The notes under the pieces: model-generated
Database searches by the model: none
Told to the model about the DNA's origin: nothing
Seen by the model: only the letters and a program-made list of their open reading frames with translations
In this document: positions 9,201 through 53,225 of the stretch, one piece after another
How the letters are laid out: the number at the start of each line of letters is the position of its first letter
Numbering within the stretch: position 1 is the first letter of the stretch
Sequence record: PX969468.1
Length of the DNA stretch: 64,000 bases
Direction: 5' to 3' (one strand)
DNA from: a phage
Position numbers and translations under genes: made by a program

Positions 9201-9229
9201 TTGAAATTAACAAAACAGTTAGGTATACT
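9201..9229 (+). promoter_or_regulatory. sigma70-like promoter (TTGAAA-17-TATACT) for the kinase operon
   Basis: hexamers and 17-nt spacer read directly in the divergent intergenic region. Confidence 0.45.
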
Positions 9230-9257
9230 CTCATTAAAATTAAAACGGAGAGTTACT

Positions 9258-9668
9258 ATGTCTAAAATGCTATATATCGTGCGTGGTCTACCAGGGTCTG
9301 GCAAATCAACACTGGCAAATGCGCTATCTTTAGAAGGTCTGTATCCACATTTTGAGAACGATATGTTCTGGTACGACGATGACGGCAATTACAATTGGGA
9401 TGCAAGTAAAGTAACACTTGCAGCAAAATGGTGCAAAGATAACGTAGAAGATATGATGCGTATGGGCTACGACCGTATCGTGGTAAGTAATACGTTTACA
9501 AAAGAAAAATATGTGCAAGAATATATTGACATGGCGATCAGTCATGGATATAGTTATACCGTGATCGTGGTTGAAAACCGCCATGGTAATAAAAGCATTC
9601 ATGATGTTCCAGACAGGGTTGTGGATCGTATGGAACGCCAGCTTAAAAACTGCATTAAACTTAAATGA
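9258..9668 (+). CDS. P-loop kinase, polynucleotide kinase-like
   Basis: 136 codons; Walker A GLPGSGKST near N-terminus; GGAG RBS 7 nt upstream; the track ORF starts upstream but the Met at 9258 has the RBS. Confidence 0.55.
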   Translation: MSKMLYIVRGLPGSGKSTLANALSLEGLYPHFENDMFWYDDDGNYNWDASKVTLAAKWCKDNVEDMMRMGYDRIVVSNTFTKEKYVQEYIDMAISHGYSYTVIVVENRHGNKSIHDVPDRVVDRMERQLKNCIKLK

Positions 9669-9675
9669 GGAATGT

Positions 9676-10230
9676 ATGAAATACTTTGTAACAAGCGACA
9701 CACACTTTCTCCACCAGCGGGTAATGGAGTTCGACTCATGTCAAAAACACAGATCTCAGTATGATCACAATCTTGACAGTATGAATGCGGGAATCATCAC
9801 CAAGTGGAACTCTGTTGTGTCACCTGCAGACACTGTGTTTCACTTGGGGGATATTGCGTGCACTAATGATAAGAATATCAACAAATTGCTTCCAGATGTT
9901 CTAAATATGTTGAACGGACATATTATTCTTGTTCGTGGTAACCATGACACAAGGACGACTGTCAGAATTATGAAAGAGTTCGGTCATGAGGTTGTAGATT
10001 ATTACGAGCTTCGCCACAACAAGAATTTGATCTGTATGAGCCATTACCAGTTTGCAAAGTGGAACAGAAAGCCTCACGGATCAGTCCAACTGTTCGGTCA
10101 TGCTCACGGAACCACACAGCAGTTGTTTGGCAGGCAGTTTGATGTCGGTTGGGATGTGTGGGGGAGACTCTTACCATTAGAAGAGGCATACCGTATTGCA
10201 ATGAGTCTTGCTATTGACAGCGGGGAGTAA
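9676..10230 (+). CDS. calcineurin-like metallophosphoesterase
   Basis: 184 codons; SDTHF, GDI, GNHD and GHAH motifs in canonical order. Confidence 0.6.
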   Translation: MKYFVTSDTHFLHQRVMEFDSCQKHRSQYDHNLDSMNAGIITKWNSVVSPADTVFHLGDIACTNDKNINKLLPDVLNMLNGHIILVRGNHDTRTTVRIMKEFGHEVVDYYELRHNKNLICMSHYQFAKWNRKPHGSVQLFGHAHGTTQQLFGRQFDVGWDVWGRLLPLEEAYRIAMSLAIDSGE

Positions 10231-10277
10231 TCCCTGCTATTTTAAAGAAAATTGCCACACAAGGAGAATCAGGAGAT

Positions 10278-10628
10278 ATGAAAGATGAGGATAAGCTGCT
10301 ATATCTTAAAGTCCCCCTTGAAATACTGTCTATGTCAAAAGTTTTGAATGGCACAACTGGGGAGGTTGTTGTTCTTGACTTATATGACAAGATCGTATAC
10401 TGCTACCTGCACAACTGGTATAAGCTTGGAGAAAATTCACGCTTCACACCCAGCACCAGGAAAATTGCAGCAGATGTTGGGATAAAGAAAACAAAAGCAG
10501 CAGCGTGCGTTAAAACTTTAGAATGTGCAGGAGTGGTTGAAATATCCACACAAGGGAGAGGTAAAAGATGCACATTTTCCAAAGTTTTGCCACCAGAAGA
10601 AGTTATTCGAATGTCAACAACTGGTTAG
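10278..10628 (+). CDS. putative DNA-binding protein (winged-helix/HTH-like)
   Basis: 116 codons; segment TRKIAADVGIKKTKAAACVKTLECAGVVEI has helix-turn-helix character; GGAG RBS. Confidence 0.35.
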   Translation: MKDEDKLLYLKVPLEILSMSKVLNGTTGEVVVLDLYDKIVYCYLHNWYKLGENSRFTPSTRKIAADVGIKKTKAAACVKTLECAGVVEISTQGRGKRCTFSKVLPPEEVIRMSTTG

Positions 10629-10702
10629 ACCAGTAAAAACTTAAACATCTGTACTATAAGGATTTGTATGTTTTATGTTCACTCTGGAGCAGAAGTTAGT
10701 AA

Positions 10703-10783
10703 CTGTCCGTGATACGGACACTACTGTCCGTCACGCGGACACATCTGCCCGTAATACGGACACTAACTGTCCGTGATACGGAC
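10703..10783. repeat. four tandem 17-bp palindromic sites TGTCCGT-N3-ACGGACA spaced 21-22 bp apart
   Basis: copies at 10703, 10724, 10745, 10767; first and fourth are perfect palindromes, second and third have 1-2 substitutions. Confidence 0.85.
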
Positions 10784-10826
10784 ACATAAAGAATATAACT
10801 AAAATAACTAAATAATAAAAAATAAA

Positions 10827-10886
10827 AGATCTAGTACTTATGGTACTAAAGTACATATACTTAACTTATGTAGAATATACTAGATC
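10827..10886. repeat. AT-rich region with inverted repeat GATCTAGTA...TACTAGATC containing two GATC sites
   Basis: 9-bp arms about 40 bp apart read directly; internal GTAC-rich palindromic segments. Confidence 0.7.
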
Positions 10887-10919
10887 CTAAGTACCATGTT
10901 TTAAATTTATTACTTATTA

Positions 10920-11285
10920 TGGGTAGTGTCGGCCCTTCATTGGCACTCGCCTACGAGGGGCGAGATGCCGGGCCTCCATAGTGCACACAATAACAGAAGT
11001 GCATACATGCAGGACTGTTAACATGTGTGGGAACGAAGCGATAGCGCAGGCCAAAGGCCGAGCACTAATGTGGACCACCGACGAAAGCTTGCCAGCGCCG
11101 GAAGGAGTCGGTTGAGAGCCTCCCGCGCGAGTTCGGATAAAGTTTATGTGTGGAAACTGACAAGAAGGACCCTAAATCGCTCCACAGCTATATAAACTAT
11201 ACCAAGTAAGGCAATCGCACCAGTTTGATAGAAAAGCTCGTTACAAAGCGATACAGTGAGTTTTTCTATAACTTGAAGAGGAGGC
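10920..11285 (+). other. GC-rich structured noncoding segment (candidate ncRNA)
   Basis: no ORF of 60 codons or more on either strand across 10629..11289; nested complementary stems such as GGCCC...GGGCC, CGCC...GGCG, GGCC-AAA-GGCC, GGAG...CTCC. Confidence 0.3.
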
Positions 11286-11289
11286 TGCT

Positions 11290-11868
11290 ATGAGTTCACG
11301 CAAAGATGCCAGTGAAAAGATTGCAAAACGTTATCAGAATGAAGAACAGATGGAGAAAACTTTCAAGTGGAAGCCAGGTTTCCAGCGTAATCATTCTAAC
11401 GCTCGTGATCGTAAGCATCCTGATAAGTGGCTAACACCGCCAAATGATGGCATGCAGGTTGGTGATGAGAAGGAGCTATCACCTGGAAAAGATGGCAACT
11501 ACATTCGCACTAAGGACGCTAGTCCAAAGGATGACAGCTATCTTGTAGATAAGGTTCTTAATGGTATTGATGTAGATGTTGACACTACACGGAACTTTTT
11601 TCTTGGGTGGTATCGCACAGGTTTTTTCGACATCAAGGCCATTCGTCGTGTTTGTGATATTAAAAAGTCTGCATATGATGACGACTCGTTACATCGCACA
11701 CTGAGACAATATTCAGAAAGATATGGTCATCCGGTTATCACTCTTGACGATGTTAACGAAGTGATGTATCATGCAGAGGTTGTTGCAGGCAGATTTGGTG
11801 ATGCATATCTTGATATCCTTTCTGCAAACGATGAGGTAATGTTGAATAAGATTTACTACGAACGTTGA
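11290..11868 (+). CDS. hypothetical protein
   Basis: 192 codons; strong RBS GAGGAGG; N-terminal half charged/low complexity. Confidence 0.5.
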   Translation: MSSRKDASEKIAKRYQNEEQMEKTFKWKPGFQRNHSNARDRKHPDKWLTPPNDGMQVGDEKELSPGKDGNYIRTKDASPKDDSYLVDKVLNGIDVDVDTTRNFFLGWYRTGFFDIKAIRRVCDIKKSAYDDDSLHRTLRQYSERYGHPVITLDDVNEVMYHAEVVAGRFGDAYLDILSANDEVMLNKIYYER

Positions 11869-11878
11869 GGAGAGCTTA

Positions 11879-12067
11879 ATGAACAATCCGGTAGCAAAGA
11901 ATTGTAATAAGTTCAACAAGTCTGCAATTCACACTGACAGGAAAAAGAGCTGGTCACCGGACATTGACGAGGAGCTGGAGAATTACTTTGAAGATCTGGT
12001 TACCAATGCAGGCGAGGTTGCGATTAAAGAATACGCAGACAGGAGGGATAAGGCCGGAATCTGTTGA
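11879..12067 (+). CDS. hypothetical small protein
   Basis: 62 codons; RBS GAGGAG upstream. Confidence 0.4.
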   Translation: MNNPVAKNCNKFNKSAIHTDRKKSWSPDIDEELENYFEDLVTNAGEVAIKEYADRRDKAGIC

Positions 12068-12092
12068 CAAAAATAATGTTACCTGATAAGAT
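12064..12092 (+). promoter_or_regulatory. sigma70-like promoter TTGACA-17-TAAGAT with TG extension
   Basis: read directly; precedes 12144 gene. Confidence 0.5.
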
Positions 12093-12143
12093 CTGCAATA
12101 TGATGTGATACAATTTTAACTTACGAGGTCTACAGGTAATGCT

Positions 12144-12386
12144 ATGTTTAAGGTTAAGCTCGTTTTCCGTTCCATGAATGAGGATTATTTAGAAGATGAA
12201 GGTGAATTTCGTGCACTAGATGATGCAATAGATTTTGCCAACGACTTAGCTTGTATGAATACGGGTTATGGTTTATGTTGTTGGGATGGTGGTGTTCAGA
12301 TTGGTGATAGCAAGATCTTCTACTTCTACCCTGAGCCCGATAACAAACAAATTAAGTATGTTTTATTTATTTGTGCTTTACAATGA
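12144..12386 (+). CDS. hypothetical small protein
   Basis: 80 codons; weak RBS. Confidence 0.35.
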   Translation: MFKVKLVFRSMNEDYLEDEGEFRALDDAIDFANDLACMNTGYGLCCWDGGVQIGDSKIFYFYPEPDNKQIKYVLFICALQ

Positions 12387-12674
12387 GGTTGTTTTCGTGT
12401 ATCATGATGAATATCCAATTTAAAGATGAGTTTGATGGCTTTATCTCCGGATGCTTTGAAACAGGGTTCGGAGAAGGCTGAGTTACCCTTAGAGGGCTTG
12501 ATAGTGCACCACACTTAAAATGGTAGGGGCAGCCAGCACATGACGATGTGACCCCAGCCAACCTGTAATAAGGTCGAGCCAGAGCGCGGTAATGGGTATC
12601 TGGTAACCCACTCGTTGGGTCTTGTTGGTCCAGGACGCTGGGCAAGTCGCAGGGAACACCACCCTGCGGCGAAC
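12387..12674 (+). other. GC-rich noncoding segment with a 26-codon mini-ORF and stable stems (candidate leader or sRNA)
   Basis: overlapping ORFs on both strands indicate absence of stops rather than coding; lies between a gene end and a consensus promoter. Confidence 0.25.
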
Positions 12675-12703
12675 TTGACAATCAGTATTTGCCGTGATAA
12701 AAT
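12675..12703 (+). promoter_or_regulatory. sigma70-like promoter TTGACA-17-TAAAAT with TG extension
   Basis: perfect -35, 17-nt spacer, near-consensus -10; 29 nt upstream of GGAGG RBS and ATG at 12732. Confidence 0.6.
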
Positions 12704-12731
12704 CCACCTATCACGTGATAATGGAGGAAAC

Positions 12732-13070
12732 ATGGCGGATACAACTAAAAAGCGTCGCCGTAGAGGCAGACCTCTGAAAGAGGAGTCCAACGCCATTCAG
12801 CTAGAGAAGAACATTCTTGATATGAAGGAATCTTTTATAGCGATGGTTCCAGAAGCTCACAAAGTTTTAAGAGAGCTGATGTTGGATCCGAAAACCAAGC
12901 AAAATATTCGTCAAAGCATTGCAGAGTATGTCCTTGATAAGGCAGACCGAATGCAGGAAGAATATGATGAGATGTTTGGTGAAGAGGAAGAGGTGGTAGT
13001 AGAAGAGGCTGAAAAACCAGCACCTTTTATGCCATTTACCACAGAGATACAGCCTGTTGGCAATAGTTAA
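12732..13070 (+). CDS. small AT-hook-like DNA-binding protein with acidic C-terminal tail
   Basis: 112 codons from the Met with GGAGG RBS; KKRRRRGRPLKEE (RGRP core) near N-terminus; C-terminus EEYDEMFGEEEEVVVEEAEK. Confidence 0.5.
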   Translation: MADTTKKRRRRGRPLKEESNAIQLEKNILDMKESFIAMVPEAHKVLRELMLDPKTKQNIRQSIAEYVLDKADRMQEEYDEMFGEEEEVVVEEAEKPAPFMPFTTEIQPVGNS

Positions 13071-13079
13071 AATATTTTC

Positions 13080-13108
13080 TTGACAAACTTTGCTTAACAG
13101 TGTAATAT
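13080..13108 (+). promoter_or_regulatory. sigma70-like promoter TTGACA-17-TAATAT upstream of tRNA cluster
   Basis: read directly; first tRNA begins about 60 nt downstream. Confidence 0.55.
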
Positions 13109-13166
13109 TATAAACATGGTCTCCCACCTTTTCTGGCGGCTCAGGTGTAAAAGAAAGCCACCCAGT

Positions 13167-13241: not shown

Positions 13242-13245
13242 AATT

Positions 13246-13332: not shown

Positions 13333-13446
13333 AATTTATATTTTTAAATGCATAAATCATACAGATAATGACATTGATATTTATCGTCGTTTATACTAGT
13401 CACTAACTGCTCGAAAATCAGTGTCATTATCAGTGTAATTTATAAA

Positions 13447-13635: not shown

Positions 13636-13735
13636 GCTAGGTAAGCCCTTTGGCAAGGGCGAGGATTTTTAATCCTGAAAATAGACGAGGTAGTCGTTGA
13701 ATACATAGGTGGTTCGATTCCATCACCTAGCACCT
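13636..13735 (+). pseudogene. atypical tRNA-like element (Lys-TTT-like 5' half, ~30-nt insert, no encoded CCA)
   Basis: perfect 7-bp acceptor GCTAGGT/ACCTAGC, D-arm GCCC/GGGC, anticodon-like loop TTTTTAA, T-arm GGTGG-TTCGATT-CCATC, but about 30 nt between anticodon arm and T-arm and CCT instead of CCA. Confidence 0.3.
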
Positions 13736-13738
13736 TTT

Positions 13739-13814: not shown

Positions 13815-13815
13815 T

Positions 13816-14798: not shown

Positions 14799-15082
14799 GA
14801 GTTACTGCACTGGTTGTTTTGTGCTTGTTATTGTGTGGGTGTGCAACCAGCGTTGAGAGAGAATACAAGATTGACCCTCCGGATGTAGGAAGGTTGATTG
14901 TTAAACCTCCCGAGGGTGCTATGAAACCACCTGCTAAAGCTATCCCTTTGAAGAAAGGTGCGCCAGATGCGGTGAATTCTGGCATTATGAGGGATAATAA
15001 CCTGTCTTGTAGTAATGATAGAGCTAAATTGATCATTTTGCAAGACTATATAAGAACACTGTTTCCAAAGGAGAGAGGTTAA
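14795..15082 (+). CDS. o-spanin (Rz1-like outer-membrane lipoprotein)
   Basis: 95 codons; signal peptide with lipobox L-C-G-C, proline-rich mature part. Confidence 0.6.
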   Translation: MRVTALVVLCLLLCGCATSVEREYKIDPPDVGRLIVKPPEGAMKPPAKAIPLKKGAPDAVNSGIMRDNNLSCSNDRAKLIILQDYIRTLFPKERG

Positions 15083-15507
15083 TGTCTAAGATTTACGGAC
15101 CGTGTTCTGAAAAGCAGAAGATGATCCTAGAGAACGATGCAGATATTTTGGTGATCGGAGGTGCAGCTGGGTCTGGAAAGTCGTTCCTCTTGCAGCTAAT
15201 GCCACTTAAAATTATTGATGACCCACACAGCTCTGTGGTTATGTTCCGAAGAACAACTCCACAGTTGGAAGGTGAGGGTGGGCTATGGCCTAAAGCAGTA
15301 GCTATTTACAGTGATCTGCCTGAAAACATTAAACCAAAGTTCAGAGAGAAGGATCATAAGTTTATTTTTCCACGGTTTGATCCGAGCACTGGCAAGTGGG
15401 ACAGGAGCAAAAAAGGGGCCGTTGTAAAATACTGCCACATGGAGTATGTCCAAGATAAGCTTAACCATCAAGGCCTTGAGTACACCATGGTTTGCTTCGA
15501 TGAGGGT
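15082..15507 (+). CDS. terminase large subunit, exon 1 (ATPase domain)
   Basis: Walker A GGAAGSGKS and Walker B VCFDEG; reading frame stops at TAA immediately after DEG. Confidence 0.65.
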
Positions 15508-16390
15508 TAATTTGTAGCTCTCGTAAAACCTCCCTAATTGCGGGGAAATCTTTATTATTGACACCACCAACCTGTTATGGTAACATGATAGAGGCTTCGA
15601 AGAGAGATCGAAGGTATGGTAACAGTGTGTTGATTTAGATAATCCGCAGCGAAGCATCCGAGAGGATGAACGTTCAACGACTAGTCGAAAGACGTAGAAT
15701 CAAGCGATTCGAAACGGGAGGGTGAATGTGTAATACTAAAAAATGTATGGATTGCCAAAGAGTTCTACCTCTTGATGATTTCTTTTTATCATCTAAGAGC
15801 CAGGATGGATACTCAGGTACATGCAAGGAATGCTATATGTACTACAGGAAGAATGGATCTCGTAGAAACAAAAATATGGTTAAGAGAGATGATGCAGCAT
15901 CTTTTATTCAAGACTTACTGAAGAAAGGTGAGCTTTTTGAATGTAAATCTTGTCATGAAAGTATGCTTGCTGATAGTTTTTACACAAAACGCGACTATGG
16001 TAAAGTGTATCTAGTCACGAACAGGTGTAAGATGTGTGAAAAGTTTTATCAGATTGAGAAGAAATTTCACATAACAAAAGATGAATACTATCGTCTACTC
16101 TCAGATCAAGATCATAAGTGTGCAATCTGTAGAATATCTCTTGATGAGTATAAGACTCAAGGATATAGAGATTTCTTTTGTGTTGATCATGACCATAAAA
16201 CTGGTGCTGTAAGAGGGTTGCTTTGTGATAAATGCAACAGGGCTTTAGGTTTCTTCCAAGAGGATGAGGAAACCATTCTTAGAGCGGCAGAGTATTTACA
16301 CATTCATAAGATATAGTCTGGTCTGCATGGAGACATGCAGCTGCCTGAAAATGGCGGGGCAAGACTAGCGACCTTGCCCGAACATAAACG
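15508..16390 (+). mobile_element. group I-like intron carrying an HNH endonuclease gene, inserted in the terminase large-subunit gene
   Basis: P/Q/R-like core elements AATTGCGGGGA (15536..15546), AATCCGCAGC (15641..15650), GTTCAACGACTAG (15672..15684); possible guide GCTCTC (15517..15522) pairing with exon end GAGGGT; ends in G; 3' boundary could be 16387 or 16390. Confidence 0.55.
15726..16316 (+). CDS. HNH homing endonuclease (intron-encoded)
   Basis: 196 codons; GGGAGGG RBS; several CxxC pairs and HNH core CVDHDHKTGAVRGLLCDKCNRALG. Confidence 0.7.
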   Translation: MCNTKKCMDCQRVLPLDDFFLSSKSQDGYSGTCKECYMYYRKNGSRRNKNMVKRDDAASFIQDLLKKGELFECKSCHESMLADSFYTKRDYGKVYLVTNRCKMCEKFYQIEKKFHITKDEYYRLLSDQDHKCAICRISLDEYKTQGYRDFFCVDHDHKTGAVRGLLCDKCNRALGFFQEDEETILRAAEYLHIHKI

Positions 16391-17512
16391 ACGCAATTCG
16401 AATGGGAGCAGATAGACTATTTGATGTCTCGTCTGCGATCTCAGTCAAAGTATCCATCAAGAATGGTTATCAGCTGTAACCCCGACTCAGAACACATGCT
16501 TGCCAAACTGGTTAGGTGGTGGTTGGACGATGAAGGGTATCCAGATCCGGAGAAATGCGGTAAGAAAAGATATTTTATCCGACGCGACGGGGAATTTATC
16601 TGGGGAGATTCTAAAGAAGAGTTGATAGAGAAATACACCACGGTTAACGGACTTGGCGTAGAGATCAAGCCAAGACCGTTGTCATTCTCGTTCATAGGCG
16701 CAACAATATTCGATAATCCTGTCTGTTTGAGAGACAACCCAGAATACCTTGCTTTCCTCGAAGGTCTACCAGAGCTGGAAAAAGCTCAGCTTCTCCATGG
16801 TAACTGGTTTGCAAAGCCTGAGGGTGCAAACTATTTTCAAAGATCTTTCCTTCGTGATGCCGATAGAGTACCTCTTGGGTCAGTATCTTGCAGGGCATGG
16901 GATAAGGCAGGAACCGAGAGAACTTCCGGTAATAAATTTCCTGACTTTACTGCCAGTATTAAGGTAAGTAAAGATAGCGACGGATTTTATTACCTGTCCG
17001 GTGATTATTGTCCTGAGAACGTGGATGACGGGAGGTATTCCACAGGTCTGGAAGGCAAGTTCTGTAAAAAGGCTGGTGAACGAGATGTGATCATCAGGAA
17101 ACAGGCGCAGTTCGATGGTGATGATTGCATAATCGTCTTCTCTGTGGACCCAGGGCAGGCAGGTAAGAGTGAGTTCTTAACCTCCTCCAGATCCTTGCTT
17201 GCCGAAGGGTTCAGGGTTGAAGAAGACCCAATGCCTTCCAACAAGTCTAAACTGACAAGGTTCTCACCTTTTGCCAATCTTGCCCAACAAGGAATGGTGA
17301 GGATTGTAAAATCCAGTTTCCATCCTGATACTCTGGAAGCATTTCTGACTGAACTTGAAAAATTCAACGGGGAAAGATCAACATTTAACAGAAAAGACGA
17401 CTGGGCCGACTGCGTAGCTTCTGCGATTAATTTCCTGGAGAAAGAGGAGGTAGCACTTCCTTGTGTGATTCCATCAATCTCATCACCTTCTATGTTCAAG
17501 CGTTTTATCTAA
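16391..17512 (+). CDS. terminase large subunit, exon 2 (nuclease domain)
   Basis: in-frame continuation TQFEWEQIDYLMSRLRS without convincing start/RBS; joins exon 1 as ...VCFDEG|TQFEW... Confidence 0.55.
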   Translation, partial: TQFEWEQIDYLMSRLRSQSKYPSRMVISCNPDSEHMLAKLVRWWLDDEGYPDPEKCGKKRYFIRRDGEFIWGDSKEELIEKYTTVNGLGVEIKPRPLSFSFIGATIFDNPVCLRDNPEYLAFLEGLPELEKAQLLHGNWFAKPEGANYFQRSFLRDADRVPLGSVSCRAWDKAGTERTSGNKFPDFTASIKVSKDSDGFYYLSGDYCPENVDDGRYSTGLEGKFCKKAGERDVIIRKQAQFDGDDCIIVFSVDPGQAGKSEFLTSSRSLLAEGFRVEEDPMPSNKSKLTRFSPFANLAQQGMVRIVKSSFHPDTLEAFLTELEKFNGERSTFNRKDDWADCVASAINFLEKEEVALPCVIPSISSPSMFKRFI

Positions 17513-17523
17513 GTGTTGCCAAT

Positions 17524-17552
17524 CTTAATTAGATGTGGTACAATAAAGTAAT
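17524..17552 (+). promoter_or_regulatory. sigma70-like promoter TTGCCA-17-TACAAT with TG extension
   Basis: read directly upstream of portal gene. Confidence 0.45.
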
Positions 17553-17570
17553 TGGAGATACTAGCCCTCT

Positions 17571-17596
17571 GACGAGGGCTATTTTGTTATACTGTT
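17571..17596 (+). terminator. terminator-like hairpin AGCCCTC-TGAC-GAGGGCT + ATTTTGTT in portal leader
   Basis: perfect 7-bp stem and T-rich tail, located between the promoter-like site and the portal start. Confidence 0.45.
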
Positions 17597-17612: not shown

Positions 17613-19169
17613 GTGTCCAAAAAGAACCGCAGGAAACACAACGCCACAGCCAAAACTGTGAATAAATCTGGGAACGCAGGCGCACCAACTCATAATGTTC
17701 GTATGAGTGAGATCGGTTCTGGCGCACTTTCCCAAATTATGGCAGAATCGCAATCTATGATGGTTGAGGAATTGCGTTGGCCTCAGCTGATTGCCACAGT
17801 GGAGACTATGAAATGTGATTCCACAGTTGCTACTGCCTTAGATACAAAATATGTTTTCATCACGAAAGCATTCAATGATTTTAAGATCCTTTATAATGTT
17901 AAAAGTGAAGACTCTAAGAAAGCTGCCGAGCTTATAGAGTATTCTTTGCGTAATTTGGCAAACCAACAAACTCTTCGAGATATTGCAAGAAGCGCAGCTA
18001 CCTTTAACGAGTATGGTTTTTCACTGTTTGAGAAAGTATACCGCAGAGAGAAAGAAGGTAAATACGCCGGGATGCTTCTTATTGATAAAATTGCATTCCG
18101 ACCTCAGGCCAGTTTGTCCAGATCAGAGCCGTTTGTCTTTGACAAGAATAGTAGAACACTGACAGGTATTTATCAATCACCTAATGCATTTCTAAACACG
18201 CAGAATGCACGCTGGGCTGGTCCTCTTGCTGCAATGCCTTCAAAAGGCTTTAATGAGCCTGAAATTTTCATCCCTGCTAAAAAGCTTATGCTCATGACTC
18301 TGTCAGGAACAGAATCTAACCCTGCAGGTGTGTCACCAATGATAGGTTGCTACAGATCTTTCCGTGAGAAAGTCTTGATTGAAAACCTTGAGGTAGTTGG
18401 CTGCTCCAAAGACCTTGGTGGTGTGCTTGAGCTGAAAATTCCTTCCAATATTCTGAACAAGGCCAGCATTGACCCGAATTCAATGGAAGGGAGAATGGTT
18501 GCAGATCTTATGCTTGACGCAGCAAATGCCCATAGTGGGGAGCAAAGTTTCTTTATACTTCCGTCTGATAGAGATAAGTCTGGTAAAGAGCTTTACTCCA
18601 TGACCCTGAAGGGGGTTGATGGTATGGGCAAGCAGTATTCGACTAAAGATTTGATTGATGCCCGTAAGAAGGCGATTCTTGACCGTTTCGGTGCTGGCTT
18701 TATTAACCTCGGTAACGATAACGTTGGATCCTTCTCTCTGTCTGAGTCAAAACAGTCTATCCATGGTCATTTTGTTCAGCGTGATATAGATATTATCACT
18801 GAAGCCTTCAATAAGGATCTTATTCCACAGCTTCTGGCATTGAATGGTATCATCCTTGAAGATGATGATATGCCTAAACTGAAACCTGGTCTGATTGAAG
18901 AGGTGGACATGGAGAGCTTCTCCAAATTTGTCCAGAGGATCGGTGCTGTAGGTTACTTGCCAAAAACTCCTGCAGTAATTAATAAGATTCTTGAAGTAGG
19001 CGGGTTTGATGAAAGATTTGACGAGGACATGGATCAGGAAGAGCTGATGAAGCTCTTGGGCCAGGATATCAGTAGGGCTGGTGATGGAATGGCTGCAGGA
19101 TCCACTGGTAACGGCACTTCTAAGATGTCATCAACCAGAGATAATTCCATATCCAACATGGAAAATTAA
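17613..19169 (+). CDS. portal protein (probable)
   Basis: 518 codons, GTG start with GAGGGG RBS; position directly after terminase; size in portal range. Confidence 0.55.
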   Translation: MSKKNRRKHNATAKTVNKSGNAGAPTHNVRMSEIGSGALSQIMAESQSMMVEELRWPQLIATVETMKCDSTVATALDTKYVFITKAFNDFKILYNVKSEDSKKAAELIEYSLRNLANQQTLRDIARSAATFNEYGFSLFEKVYRREKEGKYAGMLLIDKIAFRPQASLSRSEPFVFDKNSRTLTGIYQSPNAFLNTQNARWAGPLAAMPSKGFNEPEIFIPAKKLMLMTLSGTESNPAGVSPMIGCYRSFREKVLIENLEVVGCSKDLGGVLELKIPSNILNKASIDPNSMEGRMVADLMLDAANAHSGEQSFFILPSDRDKSGKELYSMTLKGVDGMGKQYSTKDLIDARKKAILDRFGAGFINLGNDNVGSFSLSESKQSIHGHFVQRDIDIITEAFNKDLIPQLLALNGIILEDDDMPKLKPGLIEEVDMESFSKFVQRIGAVGYLPKTPAVINKILEVGGFDERFDEDMDQEELMKLLGQDISRAGDGMAAGSTGNGTSKMSSTRDNSISNMEN

Positions 19170-19188: not shown

Positions 19189-19217
19189 TTGCAAAACCTC
19201 CTTTGGCGTGATAAAAT
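19189..19217 (+). promoter_or_regulatory. sigma70-like promoter TTGCAA-17-TAAAAT with TG extension
   Basis: read directly. Confidence 0.5.
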
Positions 19218-22126: not shown

Positions 22127-22155
22127 GGGGAGGGGGTTCTCCCCTCCCCTTTTTA
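22127..22155 (+). terminator. strong rho-independent terminator after capsid gene
   Basis: stem GGGGAGGGGG/CCCCTCCCC with 4-nt loop then TTTTT. Confidence 0.7.
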
Positions 22156-23696: not shown

Positions 23697-23725
23697 TTGC
23701 TTTTGATGTATCTTTGTGGTAAAAT
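23697..23725 (+). promoter_or_regulatory. sigma70-like promoter TTGCTT-17-TAAAAT with TGG extension
   Basis: read directly. Confidence 0.45.
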
Positions 23726-25194: not shown

Positions 25195-25266
25195 TCGTTA
25201 TAATTGTGTAGTGTAATGATTACACTGCGTGTTTGATATCCGTGCACAGATATTAAGAGGAAACAA

Positions 25267-27127: not shown

Positions 27128-27145
27128 GGGCACACTTTAGCATAA

Positions 27146-27175
27146 GCCTCACCTTCGGGTGGGGCTTTTTGCTTT
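27146..27175 (+). terminator. rho-independent terminator
   Basis: stem GCCTCACC/GGTGGGGC with TTCG loop and TTTTT. Confidence 0.6.
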
Positions 27176-27217: not shown

Positions 27218-27246
27218 TTGACAATGCACCATAATCATGGTAAAAT
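27218..27246 (+). promoter_or_regulatory. sigma70-like promoter TTGACA-17-TAAAAT with TGG extension
   Basis: read directly. Confidence 0.6.
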
Positions 27247-28023: not shown

Positions 28024-28028
28024 TCTAA

Positions 28029-28064
28029 GGGCCGGATTCCTTTTCTGGGATCTGGCCCTTTTTA
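28029..28064 (+). terminator. terminator-like hairpin
   Basis: stem GGGCCGG/CTGGCCC followed by TTTTTATT. Confidence 0.45.
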
Positions 28065-28077: not shown

Positions 28078-30411
28078 ATGGCTACAAACAAAATAGTTGC
28101 CACAACAGTCAACAAGATTGGCTTTGAGATAGAGAACTCCTCCTACAAAAAAGCTGTAGAGAAAATTCGCAGTATTGGGAGGGAGTTCAGGAAACTGGGC
28201 GAGGATTTTAACTCAGCCAACCCCATGAGTAGATGGCAGGCGGTAGCTGTTAAAACCCAGCAGACAATGCAGAGGGTTGCCAGACAGCAATCTCAGGCAA
28301 ATGCTAAACTGCACAGAGAGAGCGTAGCACAGGCCAAGAAAGAGGCTGCAGTAAGGGCTGCAATAGAACGTAGGGAGAATGCGAGACGTAAACAAGCTGT
28401 AGGTAATCTTACCGCTAAAAATCCAGAAATGGCTAGGATGCGTAAGTTCTACCAGCAGCAAGCTAAAGAGGCCAAAAAGGCTGCCAAATCTGCACCAGTG
28501 TCTTACGGCGGTTATAAGCCACCTAAGGCAAGAGTTCTGGCTAATGCTAAAGCTTTCAAATATATCCCCGGTAACCCTAATATGGGTGGTGTGGCTTCCG
28601 ACCCTAATCTTGTGAAAGCTCAGACAGCTGCTATGAATCGTTATCATAGACAGCTAAGAAGGGACGGTAAAGCTGGTATGGATAATAGGCTTATGTCGGA
28701 TCGTGAGGCAAGAAGAACCCACCTCTACAACTCCGCGATAAGACTTTCTGCCAAGTATGGTGCCGGATTCCGTGGAAGCTTGCCAGGATACTCAGAGTTA
28801 GAGTCCAGGTTTGCTCGCGGGGAGATGAAAAAGTCAACCTTTAACGCCCACCTGTCAGCGCTGCAGTCTGGATTTAAAAGTGCCACCAGCCAAACGCTTA
28901 CACTAGGCGATGCCATGAGAGACTTACGTAGATCTGTTATTAATGCAACAGCTGCGTATACAGCTTTTTCTGGATTTGCTGCGGTTAACAGATCCGGTCA
29001 CATGATGGAGGGGGCAAGTGCTGCTCTTACTGCTGTTACTGGAGATCCAAACAAAGCCAACAGTGAGGTTGCGTTTGTCCAGCAAGAGGCTATGCGTCTT
29101 GGTTTTGATCTCAAATCTGGTCTTCAAGGTTACGCCCAAATGTCGGTAAACGCCAAAAACCAGATGACAAACCAGGAAGTGCATGAGCTGTTTTCTGCAT
29201 ATTCCCAGTATGCTGCTGCTTATGGTGCTGATGAGGTAAAATACCAGCGCGGTATTATGGCAATCCAACAGATGCTCGGTAAGGGACAAGTAATGTCCGA
29301 AGAGCTGAAGCAACAACTCGCTGAAGCATTGCCTGGTGCATATGAACCTTTTATCAAGGCCACCAAAGAGGCTTTTGGTCTTTCTGAACTCTCCATGGAT
29401 CAGTTCATGGACATGATGAAGAAAGGTGAGGTTAAAACAGCCAAGATCATGAAGTATGTAGCTAAGTACATGAACGAGGCATCTGCAGCTGGTTATGAAA
29501 GAATGCAGAAGTCTAACGTGCTGGCAGAAAACAGACTGAAAACCTTCATCGAACTGACTCGTCAGAAACTGTTCACCCGTTGGTCTGACGAACTAACAGA
29601 GTTCTATTATACACTAATCCGCACTGGTGAGACTCTGCAATTTGTGTGGGATGCCTCTGGTGATTTTGTTAGCGGGTTTGTGAGAGGCCTTAACTGGGTA
29701 GTTGGTGAACTAAACAATACTATAGTTAAGATCCGCATGTTTTTCCTTGAATGGGGTATTAAATGGGGATTCATAACAGCTAAGACGAAGGAATATTCTG
29801 AAGAGCTTCATGACACCTTTAGCTATGCTAAATGGGCAGGGTTTGCTGCTGCCATCATGCTGGTCGTCAACGCCCTAACAAAAGGTTTTGTCATGGCATC
29901 TATGCTTGTAAAAACCTTTAAATTCCTTAATTCTCTAAGAGGTGCAGCTGGAGCAGCAGGTGCAGCTACTGCAGAAGGATCTGGTGGTGGCGCGGCAGGA
30001 AAAGGTGGAGGTGGCCTCAAGACACCTGGTGGTAAAGTTGGTCTGCTTGGCAAGCTGGGCATTATCGGTACAATATTAAGCGCCGGGGAATTATTTAATG
30101 ACCGTTTCAACCCGCTGAGTGAAAGAAATCAGCAACTGGATACTATCAGCGATATGATTCGCAAAGATATCATATCGGGAGGTAACGGGTTTGTTAATCC
30201 TTTGGACACCTTGCCGGGTGGGACTCTTCCGTTGCCAGGTGGTCCTGGTTTTGCTTCTCAATTAAGAACTATGGAAATGCTACCTTTAGAGATCAGTGAT
30301 GGGAAAATCACGCTTTCCATAGATGAGGGCGAGTTTAGCAAAATACTTGATGCAAAACTTGAGTGGGAGAACAGTAAAGATATCAACTTCATGTCTACCG
30401 ACCTTTGGTAG
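28078..30411 (+). CDS. tail tape measure protein
   Basis: 777 codons; long helical, A/K/Q-rich sequence with Gly-rich segment and hydrophobic stretch; position after chaperone pair. Confidence 0.7.
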   Translation: MATNKIVATTVNKIGFEIENSSYKKAVEKIRSIGREFRKLGEDFNSANPMSRWQAVAVKTQQTMQRVARQQSQANAKLHRESVAQAKKEAAVRAAIERRENARRKQAVGNLTAKNPEMARMRKFYQQQAKEAKKAAKSAPVSYGGYKPPKARVLANAKAFKYIPGNPNMGGVASDPNLVKAQTAAMNRYHRQLRRDGKAGMDNRLMSDREARRTHLYNSAIRLSAKYGAGFRGSLPGYSELESRFARGEMKKSTFNAHLSALQSGFKSATSQTLTLGDAMRDLRRSVINATAAYTAFSGFAAVNRSGHMMEGASAALTAVTGDPNKANSEVAFVQQEAMRLGFDLKSGLQGYAQMSVNAKNQMTNQEVHELFSAYSQYAAAYGADEVKYQRGIMAIQQMLGKGQVMSEELKQQLAEALPGAYEPFIKATKEAFGLSELSMDQFMDMMKKGEVKTAKIMKYVAKYMNEASAAGYERMQKSNVLAENRLKTFIELTRQKLFTRWSDELTEFYYTLIRTGETLQFVWDASGDFVSGFVRGLNWVVGELNNTIVKIRMFFLEWGIKWGFITAKTKEYSEELHDTFSYAKWAGFAAAIMLVVNALTKGFVMASMLVKTFKFLNSLRGAAGAAGAATAEGSGGGAAGKGGGGLKTPGGKVGLLGKLGIIGTILSAGELFNDRFNPLSERNQQLDTISDMIRKDIISGGNGFVNPLDTLPGGTLPLPGGPGFASQLRTMEMLPLEISDGKITLSIDEGEFSKILDAKLEWENSKDINFMSTDLW

Positions 30412-30422
30412 TAAACTGTGTA

Positions 30423-30446
30423 GGGGGCTCTGGCCCCCTTTATTTT
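30423..30446 (+). terminator. rho-independent terminator
   Basis: stem GGGGGC/GCCCCC, 4-nt loop, TTTATTTT. Confidence 0.6.
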
Positions 30447-30453
30447 ATCAGTG

Positions 30454-30482
30454 TTGTAAAAACGGCTATTTTATGATACAAT
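30454..30482 (+). promoter_or_regulatory. sigma70-like promoter TTGTAA-17-TACAAT with TG extension
   Basis: read directly. Confidence 0.45.
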
Positions 30483-41323: not shown

Positions 41324-41350
41324 GCCCTCGCTTCGGCGGGGGCTTTTTGT
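41324..41350 (+). terminator. rho-independent terminator
   Basis: stem GCCCTCGC/GCGGGGGC with TTCG loop and TTTTT. Confidence 0.6.
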
Positions 41351-41355: not shown

Positions 41356-41384
41356 TTGCGTATTAACTCAAAATCTGGTAAAAT
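41356..41384 (+). promoter_or_regulatory. sigma70-like promoter TTGCGT-17-TAAAAT with TGG extension
   Basis: read directly. Confidence 0.5.
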
Positions 41385-46823: not shown

Positions 46824-46830
46824 CAGTAAA

Positions 46831-46858
46831 GCCCCGCTTCGGCGGGGTTTATTTTTAT
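46831..46858 (+). terminator. rho-independent terminator
   Basis: stem CCCCGC/GCGGGG with TTCG loop then TTTATTTTTAT. Confidence 0.65.
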
Positions 46859-46865: not shown

Positions 46866-46894
46866 TTGACTATTGTTACAAAATTTGGTAAAAT
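46866..46894 (+). promoter_or_regulatory. sigma70-like promoter TTGACT-17-TAAAAT with TGG extension
   Basis: read directly. Confidence 0.55.
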
Positions 46895-49116: not shown

Positions 49117-51188
49117 TGGCAATAGCTGTTTTTAAACCTTACCGTGATTACTCTACAATGGCTGCACGGTTTCATTACCGCACAGTTCAAGATACTGCAG
49201 TTCCAGGTAGGGATTATGATCATGTTGAGGGTGATATAACTATTCCGGTTGGGGCAACCAGTATTGAGATTCCTGTAGAAATTGTTGACAAATTGCCAAA
49301 CAGGTTGCCAAGAAGCTTCTTTATGGAGTTTTCATCAAACTCCCAAGGGGTTATGATTGGAACACAAAGAGCGAAATGTACAATAGTTTCAGATGAGAAT
49401 CTTGACAGAATATCTTGGGATACCGTTGAGGAGAGAATGTTTCACCCAAGATACTGGGTTACAACCACACAGCAGACTGAAAGCACCTGTATTGTTGCGG
49501 ATAATAACTGCTGTATTAACCGTTTAGTGTCAAGAACATATGGAGGCATGGCTGGGTGCATTTGGGAAACAGTTGACAAGTATGACCATTTCGGTATTGG
49601 ATTTGATGATCACTACGAGATGAGAAACACCAAGCTTTGGTTCAGAATGTCAATAACCAATGCCAGCAACTTTTCCACCCCTGAAAAGATGATTATGACT
49701 GTAGACCTTGTTGATGGTACAATCATCTATGTTCCTTTAGCTCAATATGCTGTCAGCATCTCAGAGGATAAGAATGTTGCAGAAATTCATATTGATTTCG
49801 AGGACTGCGTCGGGATGGACCAGAACAACAACATGATGGGTGTTGATCCTCGGCAGGTGAGAAGGATTCTAATACCACTTATGCCTAAAGATTGGGTAGG
49901 TAATAGCACAGACCCGAGAACGGAAAATGTAGAGTGTGAGCTGCGTCTAGATCTGCTTCAGCCGGACACAGGCTGGAAAATGATGCAACTTAACAATATC
50001 CAGGTGAAAGAGCACGACGTCGGGATCTGCACAGCATATGACGATATGTGGAACGTATCCCCTTTAAGGGTGTTGAGCAATATCAAGCGCCTTGGCTATA
50101 CCGGAACCATAAATCATTATGTTGGTATGAGTCATTATTATGACTACACATGGTCAGGAACCCAATGGTCTATAAACAAAACAGGGGCTCTAAACGCTGC
50201 AGCTTATAAATGGCATGATGATTTTATGTACAATGCCAAACGACATGACTTCGACGTTATGCAGTCTGTAAGCTTTGAGCTTTATAGCGATGCCTGCCCG
50301 TTGGAATGGACCCAGAGAGACTGGAACGATAACTATGCTAAAACAGGCTATACGCCTTGTAGTTACCTCCTGTCTCCAACCATTGAAGAGGGTATGAATT
50401 TCCTTACTGCGGTATTTAAGAATTTTGCATCAGCCGCTATGAGAAACAACCTGCCAGTGATTATGCAGATTGGTGAACCGTGGTGGTGGTTCAATACCGA
50501 TACTCGTAAGCCTTGTATTTATGACTACCCTACAAAGCAGGCGTTTTATGATGAGACTGGTGAATATGCACTAGACATTGGGACTATTGACGATCCTAAA
50601 ACTGGCGGTGTTTATGACAAGTATGTAGCATTTTGTCGTGGTAAGCTTGGCGCTCGTATTGCAGCCATTTCAAAGGCAATAAAAGCACACGCTGCATCGG
50701 CTCAGATGACAGCTTTACTGTTTTTCCCCACTATTATGGAAACCGAGCTTACGCAAAAACTGAACCTTGCTGACCAATATAAAAAGGAAGCAGGTGCTCT
50801 TGATTTCTTCTGCACTGAGTGCTACGATTGGGTGATGCAGGGAGGTATTGAAAAGGCAAAAGAGTCTGTAAACATACCTATCGTTAAGTTAGGTTGGAAA
50901 CCGTCTGAAATACAATACCTTGCAGGGTTCGTTCCTAGCAAAGAGCTTGCTCCGGTATATGGCTACGACCCAACCAGGAATTACCAAGAATTTTTATGGA
51001 GATGTATTTGCGGAAACATGGCAACCATAGAGTATAGATACCCTGAGGTAAAACAGTATGTGTGGGCATACCCGCAAGTAATGTCTGACAGCATCACTGT
51101 TACCGCTAGAGATTCTACCGTGCTTCATATGGGGCAGGTTGCTCTGAAAGGGTATGTAGAAGATGTTGTCCCGCCAGACTTCTCATAA
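49116..51188 (+). CDS. tail-associated protein, N-terminal Calx-beta-like segment (tentative)
   Basis: 690 codons; N-terminal DYDHVEGDITIPVGATSIEIPVEIVD pattern; Trp-rich C-terminal region. Confidence 0.3.
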   Translation: MAIAVFKPYRDYSTMAARFHYRTVQDTAVPGRDYDHVEGDITIPVGATSIEIPVEIVDKLPNRLPRSFFMEFSSNSQGVMIGTQRAKCTIVSDENLDRISWDTVEERMFHPRYWVTTTQQTESTCIVADNNCCINRLVSRTYGGMAGCIWETVDKYDHFGIGFDDHYEMRNTKLWFRMSITNASNFSTPEKMIMTVDLVDGTIIYVPLAQYAVSISEDKNVAEIHIDFEDCVGMDQNNNMMGVDPRQVRRILIPLMPKDWVGNSTDPRTENVECELRLDLLQPDTGWKMMQLNNIQVKEHDVGICTAYDDMWNVSPLRVLSNIKRLGYTGTINHYVGMSHYYDYTWSGTQWSINKTGALNAAAYKWHDDFMYNAKRHDFDVMQSVSFELYSDACPLEWTQRDWNDNYAKTGYTPCSYLLSPTIEEGMNFLTAVFKNFASAAMRNNLPVIMQIGEPWWWFNTDTRKPCIYDYPTKQAFYDETGEYALDIGTIDDPKTGGVYDKYVAFCRGKLGARIAAISKAIKAHAASAQMTALLFFPTIMETELTQKLNLADQYKKEAGALDFFCTECYDWVMQGGIEKAKESVNIPIVKLGWKPSEIQYLAGFVPSKELAPVYGYDPTRNYQEFLWRCICGNMATIEYRYPEVKQYVWAYPQVMSDSITVTARDSTVLHMGQVALKGYVEDVVPPDFS

Positions 51189-51200
51189 TCAGGAGATAAA

Positions 51201-52241
51201 ATGTCAAAACCTAGTTTTCCATTAGAGATTTGGGCAGAGGAGGATCAGGTTCTGCCTAACACCCACAGACAGAACAGGCTACGCCCGATTGATGATTTGT
51301 GGAGAAAAGGTTGGGATCTTGGTCAAAAGCCCTCATGTGAAGAACTTAACTATATTTTCAATATGCTCGGAACTTGGGCAAAATACATTGCTGACGAGCA
51401 GATCCCCGCTCAAGAAGGCCGTTATCTGGTACGCGATAATAACTTGAGTGATCTTTTGAACATCCCTGTTGCCCGTAGAAACCTTGGGATTATTACTAAG
51501 GAAGAGGCAGACGCCAGGTATGTAAAAGTTACAGGTGATACAATGACAGGCCCATTGGGTTTGCAACGTATCAACTTTAAAGCTGCCGAGACAGACAGGG
51601 CTTGGATAGAGACAACTATTGGCCCAGATAAGACAACTCTCGACTTTGGGTTAAGTGATAATATTGGGTCGTTTGATGATGGTGGTACATCTACAGTAGA
51701 TGCGTTTCGTTGGAGATTTCAGCCAACTCAGCCGGATATCAATCCGGAGTTCACTTTGATGTACCTTAACGCGATCACGGCTAACCGTGCGCTGTTGAAA
51801 GTGGTAGGCAATGTTGAAGTTGTCGATAACATGAGGTGCAATAACCTTACTATTAGCAATACAGCAACATTCACCAACTGTAATGTGGCTAGTCAGTTGA
51901 CGGCTGGGTCAGTGTATGTTAATGGTGGTACAAGTTGTGACAGTATGGTTGTAAGAAGTCAGCACTGTGTTGTCGGTAACAGAAATGTGGTGCGCTCTGT
52001 AAATGGAGTGACGGCTAACGGTAACGGTGATGTAACAATCACTATCCCGCAGACAGGTGTGCAAGACATCAGAATCGGTGCAAGACTTGTTGACGGCGTT
52101 TCCGAATCTCCAATTCGCAACGGCTACGTTGTCACAGGCTGGCATTTCGGTGACAAAAAAGAGATGCGTGGTTCAACCTACTGGGCAGGACCTTTACAAA
52201 AACTTGTAAATGGTCAATGGATCACTGTTAATTATGCATAG
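51201..52241 (+). CDS. tail fibre protein (paralogue A)
   Basis: 346 codons; paralogous to 53256..54299 (shared PL-IWA N-terminus, FRWRFQP core, C-terminal VNGQWITVNYA). Confidence 0.55.
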   Translation: MSKPSFPLEIWAEEDQVLPNTHRQNRLRPIDDLWRKGWDLGQKPSCEELNYIFNMLGTWAKYIADEQIPAQEGRYLVRDNNLSDLLNIPVARRNLGIITKEEADARYVKVTGDTMTGPLGLQRINFKAAETDRAWIETTIGPDKTTLDFGLSDNIGSFDDGGTSTVDAFRWRFQPTQPDINPEFTLMYLNAITANRALLKVVGNVEVVDNMRCNNLTISNTATFTNCNVASQLTAGSVYVNGGTSCDSMVVRSQHCVVGNRNVVRSVNGVTANGNGDVTITIPQTGVQDIRIGARLVDGVSESPIRNGYVVTGWHFGDKKEMRGSTYWAGPLQKLVNGQWITVNYA

Positions 52242-52255
52242 ATCGGAGGACTAGC

Positions 52256-52840
52256 ATGAAAATACTTCAAGAGTTTAAACTTTACCAACCGGGATCTGGC
52301 GAATACCACGCCAACAAGGAAACCAAAGAGCTGACCCCTCAAGAGGTTGAGGATTACACCGCATACACTGGGTATTTTTTACGTAATGATGATGGCGATT
52401 GGTATGTGCAGTCACGAACATTACGACAAGAAAATCCGGGTTGTATCTTCCTACTTGTTGACGAGAAGGGAATTCTTAAGACATCTACAGAAGAGCCTGA
52501 TGCCTTATGGCCTGCTCCAGGTCTTCGTGTGGTTATCGCCAAAAAAGAAGAGGTACCAGAAAACATTATGCTTCACCACGACGCTTTGCGTTTAGTTGGT
52601 GATGAATTTGTCACAGATAATGAATTCTTTGTTCAACAGGCAGAGGGTGTCATAGAGACAGAACTTGCTTGGGCTACTGCTAGAATTGGTGCCTATCAAG
52701 ACATGATTGACCTTGAATATGATCTTACTGATGACCAGAAACGTAACATCAGAGATTTGAAAATGTACAGGGTAAAACTTCTTGAAATAGATACATCTAA
52801 AGCCCCTGACATTTTCTTCCCGGAGCGACCTACCCTCTAA
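52256..52840 (+). CDS. tail fibre assembly chaperone (Tfa-like)
   Basis: 194 codons immediately downstream of fibre gene; C-terminal LTDDQKRNIRDLKMYRVKLLEID pattern. Confidence 0.45.
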   Translation: MKILQEFKLYQPGSGEYHANKETKELTPQEVEDYTAYTGYFLRNDDGDWYVQSRTLRQENPGCIFLLVDEKGILKTSTEEPDALWPAPGLRVVIAKKEEVPENIMLHHDALRLVGDEFVTDNEFFVQQAEGVIETELAWATARIGAYQDMIDLEYDLTDDQKRNIRDLKMYRVKLLEIDTSKAPDIFFPERPTL

Positions 52841-52851
52841 GAGGAGGTGTT

Positions 52852-53166
52852 GTGGAGTTGGATTTGGCGGCATTGTACGGTATCTGCATGGGTACCGTTG
52901 TCCCGATCTGTGTATGGGCTTTCAACCAGTGGCACACCAAATGGAAAGGCATTTCCAAGAGGTTGGATGAACTGGAGAAAGACCTCATCTTAGTGAAAAA
53001 CAGTATGGTTACAAAAGATAAACTTGATTCCGTTATCGAGACCCGGTTAAGCAAGCTAGAGGCCGATATTAACGACCTTAAGCAGGATGTCAGGACAGAT
53101 GTCTCCGGCATCCGAGCTGATGTACAAAAGATTTTGCACATGCTTGTAGAGCATAGTAAAAGGTAA
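52852..53166 (+). CDS. small membrane protein, TM helix + coiled coil (holin-like candidate)
   Basis: 104 codons; GTG start 4 nt after GAGGAGG; N-terminal hydrophobic helix LAALYGICMGTVVPICVWAF then charged helical tail. Confidence 0.35.
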   Translation: MELDLAALYGICMGTVVPICVWAFNQWHTKWKGISKRLDELEKDLILVKNSMVTKDKLDSVIETRLSKLEADINDLKQDVRTDVSGIRADVQKILHMLVEHSKR

Positions 53167-53196
53167 ACAAAGGTCAGGACGGAAAGGACTCCGTTC

Positions 53197-53225
53197 TTGC
53201 ATTTTGTTTCCTAAAGTGTTAAAAT
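53197..53225 (+). promoter_or_regulatory. sigma70-like promoter TTGCAT-17-TAAAAT with TG extension
   Basis: read directly; preceded by a short hairpin. Confidence 0.45.

Follow-up and report, generated by a model that had tools for sequence, protein, structure and literature searches.

Predicted sigma-70-type promoters of two architectures punctuate the plus strand of an rV5-like phage

The window analysed here, a whole stretch of 64,000 nucleotides (nt) of phage DNA (PX969468.1), carries on its plus strand a series of predicted promoters of the bacterial sigma-70 type, which are the subject of this report. Sequence comparison identifies its source as an rV5-like myovirus (Vequintavirus), a close relative of coliphage rV5. 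In local BLAST searches the window aligns to the reverse complement of the rV5 genome (NC_011041) at about 11.5-75 kilobases (kb), and the homologous stretches, which hold all 12 promoter sites described below, are about 93-98% identical, the figure for the window being about 97%; more than 100 Vequintavirus genomes match a 20-kb stretch of the window at 95-98% identity. Homology to rV5 is broken twice, at about 3.0-5.7 kb and at 40.3-40.9 kb of the window. Between 9.2 and 62 kb the plus strand encodes an early/middle cluster, transfer RNAs (tRNAs), spanin-like lysis genes, the terminase genes and the whole virion block. Phages of the rV5 type are widely used in biocontrol and therapy cocktails against E. 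coli and Salmonella.

The original prediction had grouped 12 sites into one family of near-consensus promoters with a TG-extended -10 element. Eleven of them proved exact (TTGnnn, 17-nt spacer, TAnnnT), while the one placed at 17524 was mis-registered by 8 nt, the true site being 17516 (TTGCCA-17-TACAAT with a TGG extension). TTG stands exactly 17 base pairs (bp) from the -10 in all sites of the window. The -10 hexamers are TAAAAT in seven cases, TACAAT in two, and TATACT, TAAGAT and TAATAT in one each; all 12 fit TAnnnT and nine fit TA(A/C)AAT. TG at -15/-14 is found in 10 of the 12, including all nine late-class or hybrid sites, and is missing at 9201 (AGG-TATACT) and 13080 (GTG-TAATAT). The sites fall into two promoter classes rather than a single TG-extended family. 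Their location on the plus strand was confirmed, every one of them being intergenic and on the coding strand.

Eight sites (17516, 19189, 23697, 27218, 30454, 41356, 46866 and 53197) make up a late class, and the site at 12675 is a hybrid. The late consensus is TTGnnn-N14-TGnTA(A/C)AAT-A, in which TTG alone is kept at the -35, the spacer is exactly 17 bp and the extended -10 does not vary. The names given in brackets are those of the counterparts in Table S4 of the published rV5 promoter map (Kropinski et al. 2013, Virol J 10:76, PMC3606486). The first predicted late promoter (17516..17544, TTGCCA-N14-TGGTACAAT; P064, Table S4C) lies upstream of the portal gene, and the second (19189..19217, TTGCAA-N14-TGATAAAATA), which is the best conserved of all and absent from the rV5 list, stands before a gp063-like (prohead-protease-like) gene. 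Further along the strand, promoters of this class precede the Neck1/tail-completion gene (23697..23725, TTGCTT-N14-TGGTAAAATA; P056), the tail assembly chaperone gene (27218..27246, TTGACA-N14-TGGTAAAATA; P051, annotated as a promoter in NC_011041), a gp048-like gene (30454..30482, TTGTAA-N14-TGATACAAT; P048), the distal tail protein gene (41356..41384, TTGCGT-N14-TGGTAAAATA; P040), a baseplate wedge gene (46866..46894, TTGACT-N14-TGGTAAAATA; P036) and a tail fibre gene (53197..53225, TTGCAT-N14-TGTTAAAATA; P030).

The early/middle class, represented in the window by 9201, 12064 and 13080 and by many more sites elsewhere in the genome, combines a near-perfect TTGACA with a variable -10. The site at 9201..9229 (TTGAAA-17-TATACT; P081, Table S4A) precedes an AAA-type ATPase gene starting at 9258 (Pfam AAA_33). 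The other two are found at 12064..12092 (TTGACA-17-TAAGAT with a TGA extension; P075, Table S4B) and at 13080..13108 (TTGACA-17-TAATAT; PtRNA, Table S4B), the latter being the tRNA-cluster promoter, about 59 nt before a tRNA-Arg gene (13167). The hybrid promoter (12675..12703; P074, Table S4A) joins a perfect TTGACA to TGATAAAAT and precedes ORF74 (start 12732), ahead of the tRNA block; at the equivalent place in Seunavirus and a Klebsiella phage, a late-type and an early-type promoter stand in tandem. In rV5, sites that pair a perfect TTGACA with a variable -10 cluster in the early/middle regions (60-135 kb), and within the virion block an intergenic perfect TTGACA occurs at P051 only.

Next to the 9201 promoter a divergent candidate was seen on the minus strand (9169-9197, TTGACA-17-CAGAAT with a TG extension), the -35 hexamers of the two being about 4 bp apart. 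It is a plausible promoter of the RNA-ligase-like gene at 8222-9157 (minus strand). A bidirectional pair at P081 was expected in the rV5 paper, which lists the P081 half only (PMC3606486).

The strict pattern TTG-N17(ending TGn)-TAnAAT occurs nine times on the plus strand of the window and not once on the minus strand. In 1000 dinucleotide-preserving shuffles its mean was 0.15 and its maximum 4, which corresponds to an enrichment of about 60-fold with complete strand bias. As this pattern had been defined after the sites were seen, independent support was sought in gap location, leader geometry and the contrast between intergenic and intragenic copies. The plus-strand block has few intergenic gaps, and all nine strict sites fall within these, with the end of the -10 at 21-68 nt before a start codon that is preceded by a Shine-Dalgarno sequence. 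The plus strand holds 10 copies of TGnTAAAAT versus 2.2 expected; TTG stands exactly 17 nt upstream of all seven intergenic copies versus none of the three intragenic ones, whose number is close to chance. An A follows the -10 hexamer in 8 of the 9 late-type sites, and no conserved position was detected upstream of the -35 among these nine. A generic consensus scan gave a modest excess over shuffles (64 versus 41.5, 41 versus 32 and 44 versus 36 expected) with many intragenic matches; it was too noisy and is therefore not used as evidence.

A motif search across the complete rV5 genome revealed ten strict late-type sites, all ten on the coding strand. Eight are in the virion block, one is before ORF74 and the tRNA block, and one is before gp210. 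The last is the sole one outside the region covered by the window (NC_011041 123662-123690, minus strand, TTGTAA-N14-TGCTAAAATA). It occupies the gap that precedes gp210/gp209 in the early region, and its counterpart in phage PVP-SE1 reads TTGACA-17-TAATAT. By its upstream motif, rV5 gp209 may be a late-expressed gene.

Conservation was analysed by comparing virion blocks of relatives within the Vequintavirinae. Identity of the major capsid protein to that of the window is 66-68% for PVP-SE1 and EspYZU15 (Seunavirus), about 66% for the Klebsiella phage, which is Seunavirus-like, 51% for Certrevirus F2M1E, 87.5% for MiataMamis and 42% for phAPEC8. The gaps before the gp063-, gp056- and gp048-like genes show the same late architecture in Seunavirus, the Klebsiella phage and Certrevirus, with diverged spacers. 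At the gp063 gap, PVP-SE1, EspYZU15, the Klebsiella phage and Certrevirus F2M1E all retain TTGCAA-N14-TGnTAAAATAA, the full sites being TTGCAA-aacctcctttggcg-TGATAAAATA in the window, TTGCAA-aagaaaatgaacgg-TGTTAAAATA in PVP-SE1 and TTGCAA-aacagtcagttcag-TGCTAAAATA in Certrevirus. The gp048 gap holds TTGTTT-N14-TGATAAAAT in PVP-SE1, EspYZU15 and the Klebsiella phage and TTTTTT-N14-TGCTAAAATA in Certrevirus, and the terminator-promoter cassette after the tape-measure gene is conserved whole across genera. In the gp036 (baseplate wedge) gap of PVP-SE1 and Certrevirus, TGATAAAATA is kept and the -35 has decayed to TTTATA and TTTTAA, respectively. Over four sites in two genera, the -35 TTG is identical at 21 of 24 positions, versus 69 of 152 at the remaining 19 positions of the 29-mer. 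Promoters in the gaps before the gp051-like and portal genes are found in Vequintavirus and MiataMamis only, and two orthologous gaps of the distant phAPEC8 hold TTGACA promoters, either plain or TG-extended. Taken across these genera, conservation argues strongly for a functional late motif, in which the extended -10 would be the core and TTG would play an auxiliary part.

The gap equivalent to that of P051 (L004 at about 30000-30060, L005, L007 and L009) has no P051 promoter in Seunavirus, the Klebsiella phage and Certrevirus; there these phages have in common a conserved hairpin-like element, gtgccacatggacgtggcc.

Five of the promoters had been predicted to follow a rho-independent terminator within about 50 bp. 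This holds for four of them, where canonical terminators with GC stems and a U tract (-15.5 to -21.8 kcal/mol, a UUCG loop in three of the four) end 13-51 nt upstream of the -35, in three cassettes within 13-16 nt; the fifth case, at 53.2 kb, is marginal. All terminators described here are on the plus strand. The four are located after the sheath gene and the next virion structural gene, which is gp052-like (27144..27167, -21.8 kcal/mol; t052 in rV5 Table S4), after the tape-measure gene (30422..30439, -15.5 kcal/mol; t049), at 41324..41343 (-16.9 kcal/mol; t041) and after the gene of a 1279-amino-acid (aa) tail protein (46829..46850, -16.5 kcal/mol; not in the rV5 list). The structure at 53.2 kb is a weak hairpin (53176..53197, -12.3 kcal/mol; absent from the rV5 list) whose U tract is interrupted and which overlaps the -35. 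Three more intrinsic terminators have no promoter directly behind them: after the major capsid gene (22127..22149, -21.5 kcal/mol; t060), immediately before the tape-measure gene (28027..28060, -26.1 kcal/mol; t050) and before the gene of a 1875-aa Ig-like protein (56340..56361, -17.1 kcal/mol; t028). These three must therefore be attenuators, leaky or read through, and expression of the tape-measure gene needs read-through. At 17.5 kb the order is reversed, with a terminator (17562..17581, -14.2 kcal/mol; t064ABC) between the 17516 promoter and the portal gene start at 17613. Together, the predicted promoters and terminators would divide the 45-kb virion block into some eight units, in which the strong terminators after the capsid, sheath with adjacent structural, chaperone and tape-measure genes would set transcript boundaries and stoichiometry. 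The proposal that host-type promoters punctuate the plus-strand block, virion genes included, is supported by the enrichment of the pattern, by where the sites lie (strand and gaps), by the geometry of the leaders and by cross-genus conservation in orthologous gaps, and it agrees with the published rV5 annotation.

A promoter and terminator map of this kind, with its interpretation, is already known for rV5, where it was published as a set of predictions. Kropinski et al. listed 20 rho-independent terminators and 33 sigma-70-type promoters, of which 11 have an extended -10, and they found eight copies of the MEME motif 'TggTAaAAtA' upstream of rV5 late genes (PMC3606486). Eleven of our 12 sites are in their Table S4, and several of these regulatory features are annotated in the GenBank record NC_011041. 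The window differs from rV5 by a few substitutions in the spacers. In the rV5 MEME alignment P048 is placed in a different register; TTGTAA-N14-TGATACAAT, which has sigma-70 geometry, fits better, since cross-genus comparison supports it. The rV5 promoter P055 (TGGTAGAAG) is present in the window without T at -7 and without TTG at -35. A literature search for the exact motif string found only unrelated papers, and the paper on Certrevirus CB7 describes an early TTGAC-type promoter only.

Judged from sequence, this is a real but ordinary feature with good statistical and phylogenetic support. Since the rV5 map dates from 2013, the observation itself adds little. The additions are the two promoter architectures, the presence of the late one at orthologous positions in three further Vequintavirinae lineages, and the absence of T4-type late promoters. 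They narrow the mechanism of the early-to-late transition to either no switch or a factor that separates -35-dependent from extended -10 promoters, and they provide defined promoters for phage engineering.

The conserved elements stand where regions 4.2, 3.0 and 2.4 of sigma-70 contact DNA, and in the late geometry region 3.0 (at TG) and region 2.4 (at the -10) give most of the binding energy. We infer that the host sigma-70 holoenzyme, possibly modified, probably initiates at these predicted promoters. The phage would lack an RNA polymerase of its own, and the host holoenzyme would read both promoter classes; in the RefSeq annotation, none of the 233 numbered rV5 genes has a product named as an RNA polymerase or sigma factor. 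A shared sequence-specific upstream activator is unlikely, because terminators end 13-16 nt from the -35 and nothing is conserved upstream of it. Pfam and PHROG searches with ten candidate proteins, namely eight window proteins of the 9-14 kb cluster and rV5 gp011 and gp153 (both encoded outside the window), revealed no sigma-like or RNA-polymerase-binding domain among these ten, and no binder of sigma-70 region 4 or the beta flap was matched. Apart from one small 'transcriptional regulator' PHROG, which was matched by gp153, the only matches were those of an HTH_36/'replication initiation' protein and of the Srd-like gp011, which matched the PHROGs 'decoy of host sigma70' (E = 6e-12) and Srd (E = 6e-9). 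These two rV5 proteins are the only leads towards a polymerase modifier.

Late promoters of phage T4 (TATAAATA) are read by gp55 together with gp33 and the sliding clamp (gp45). They share with the late sites of the window a short AT-rich motif in the -10 region that is common to virion-gene promoters, but the window sites also carry the TG and -35 TTG elements. It could be supposed that the late motif TGGTAAAATA is likewise read by a phage-encoded, gp55-like late sigma factor instead of sigma-70, as the motif is confined to the virion-gene block, unlike the early class, has the extra A after the hexamer in most sites, and in other genera sometimes loses its -35 yet keeps the -10 block; likeness to the T4 late consensus was noted by Kropinski et al. 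(PMC3606486). We consider this improbable. TG at -15/-14 and TTG at exactly 17 bp, which do not vary here, are hallmarks of sigma-70 regions 3.0 and 4.2, the product names and the ten screened proteins gave no sigma candidate, and homologues of gp55, gp33 and gp45 were reported absent from rV5 (PMC3606486), whose RefSeq product names include none of the three. TATAAATA itself is not enriched in the window (2 matches versus 2.1 expected) and both matches are on the non-coding strand, so that T4-type late promoters are rejected. More improbable still is that the motif is not a promoter at all and instead a site for a DNA-binding protein, an RNA-level signal or an artefact of chance or composition. 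Initiation at the sites rests on sequence, and AT-rich motifs are common in intergenic DNA; however, such readings would have to account for the enrichment and complete strand bias, for three separate elements at exact sigma-70 spacing, for positions directly after terminators and shortly before start codons, and for cross-genus conservation only at sigma-contact positions, and the gaps contain no Rfam family.

That sigma-70 acts without any modification of the polymerase is a real possibility, if less likely than not. The promoters would then be constitutive, and late abundance would come from gene dosage through replication, eased competition from early and host promoters, and mRNA stability. 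Elements this close to consensus require no activator by the rules for E. coli, screening of the ten proteins turned up no dedicated regulator, and phAPEC8 has a plain TTGACA-17-TAGACT at its gp063 gap. The rV5 authors had themselves suggested from the genome-wide host-type promoters that T4-like holoenzyme modification 'might not occur' (PMC3606486). On the other side, the sharp split into early and late classes, conserved across genera, suggests differential regulation, gp011 matches sigma-70-decoy and Srd profiles, and strong terminators without a promoter, such as that before the tape-measure gene, hint at regulated read-through. The Srd-like gp11 of rV5 was proposed as a possible part of an early/late switch (PMC3606486). 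If the late sites do act late, the view that the phage relies on a modifier of RNA polymerase rather than a new sigma factor is reasonable; it had been raised earlier by Kropinski et al.

Several points weigh against initiation by sigma-70, or against a late role of these sites. The searched literature contained no transcription-start, RNA-seq or in vitro transcription data for rV5-like phages. Near-consensus extended -10 elements with TTG would be expected to work on naked DNA as soon as infection begins, which sits uneasily with a strictly late role unless they are repressed. Cross-genus identity of the extended -10 is partly ascertainment, because sites were found by searching for the motif. 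Variation within the genus (window, rV5 and MiataMamis), at 0 of 90 constrained versus 15 of 441 other positions, is an underpowered comparison (p = 0.087). The terminator at 17562 lies about 10 nt past the predicted start of the 17516 promoter, which would fire straight into it; possible readings are a non-functional promoter, a hairpin that acts as a 5' stabiliser, or regulated termination. Finally, the invariant -35 TTG in Vequintavirus argues that the -35 contact still matters, and this weakens the model of a switch considered next.

T4 AsiA and gp39 of Thermus phage P23-45, binders of sigma region 4 or the beta flap, disable -35 recognition and spare extended -10 promoters, in P23-45 the middle/late ones, and gp39 also antiterminates (PMC3950348, PMC3351154). 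The window phage resembles these systems in having a -35-dependent class and a later extended -10 class, in the use of host polymerase for late genes and in terminators inside late units. TTGACA with a variable -10 is concentrated outside the virion block and TGnTAAAATA inside it, as such a factor would lead one to expect, but the late sites retain TTG, and the class inhibited by gp39 was described for -10/-35 promoters of the host, not for early promoters of the phage (PMC3950348). The resemblance is to how the switch might work and does not imply membership; no gp39 or AsiA homologue was found in the ten-protein scan. The late sites also resemble extended -10 promoters of E. coli in TG at -15/-14, A at -11, T at -7 and a weak or partial -35, and differ from them in the invariant TTG, in TAAAAT instead of TATAAT and in the extra A that follows. 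By analogy, if a phage factor were to block recognition of the -35, promoters of the TTGACA class would fall silent and those of the extended -10 class would be spared. Such an early-to-late switch is speculative and rather unlikely; it is favoured by the clean split between the classes and by the -35 decay seen in other genera. In its most specific form, which we put forward with still more reserve, Vequintavirinae may encode a small functional analogue of AsiA or gp39 that acts on sigma-70 region 4 or the beta flap and shuts off TTGACA-dependent early promoters and host promoters while sparing the TGnTAAAATA late promoters. The same putative protein might also promote read-through at the 22.1, 28.0 and 56.3 kb terminators. 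If this were true, the two-class architecture would mark, in cis, the action of a new RNA polymerase hijacking factor encoded by a large group of therapeutic coliphages.

Some further observations concern the layout of the window. The tRNA block consists of six tRNA genes and one odd tRNA-like sequence (13636-13734), for which ARAGORN gave a 4-base anticodon (tRNA-???) and the Rfam tRNA model 35.5 bits, barely over threshold; this member of the cluster may be an unusual tRNA or a degenerate one. Rfam searches over the whole window detected tRNAs only. The large terminase gene (window 15082-17512) is in three open reading frame (ORF) pieces at 15082-15510, 15726-16316 and 16421-17512. A stretch of about 1 kb with an HNH homing endonuclease in rV5 (58.8-59.8 kb) is missing from the window, which shows that intron/homing-endonuclease content varies between strains. 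The region 3015-5707 has nearly no nucleotide match to rV5 (107 bp aligned, 89% identity) and spans the 3' part of a ligase gene and the minus-strand ORFs 3009-3770 and 3825-4322; by this comparison, mosaic exchange seems to have replaced this part of the early/middle region.

An AT-rich hairpin (25205-25231, 9-12 pairs depending on the tool, -9.9 kcal/mol), which may be an RNA processing or stability element, was found in the 73-bp gap that precedes the tail sheath gene; no promoter motif is present in this gap. A non-coding gap at 10629-11289 contains four tandem repeats of 21-22 bp (10700-10785), each with the palindrome TGTCCGT-N3-ACGGACA. They are spaced by two helical turns, are followed by a very AT-rich stretch and are located just 3' of the gene of the 116-aa HTH_36/'replication initiation protein' (10278-10628). 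The array looks like a set of iterons or operators and is a candidate replication origin.

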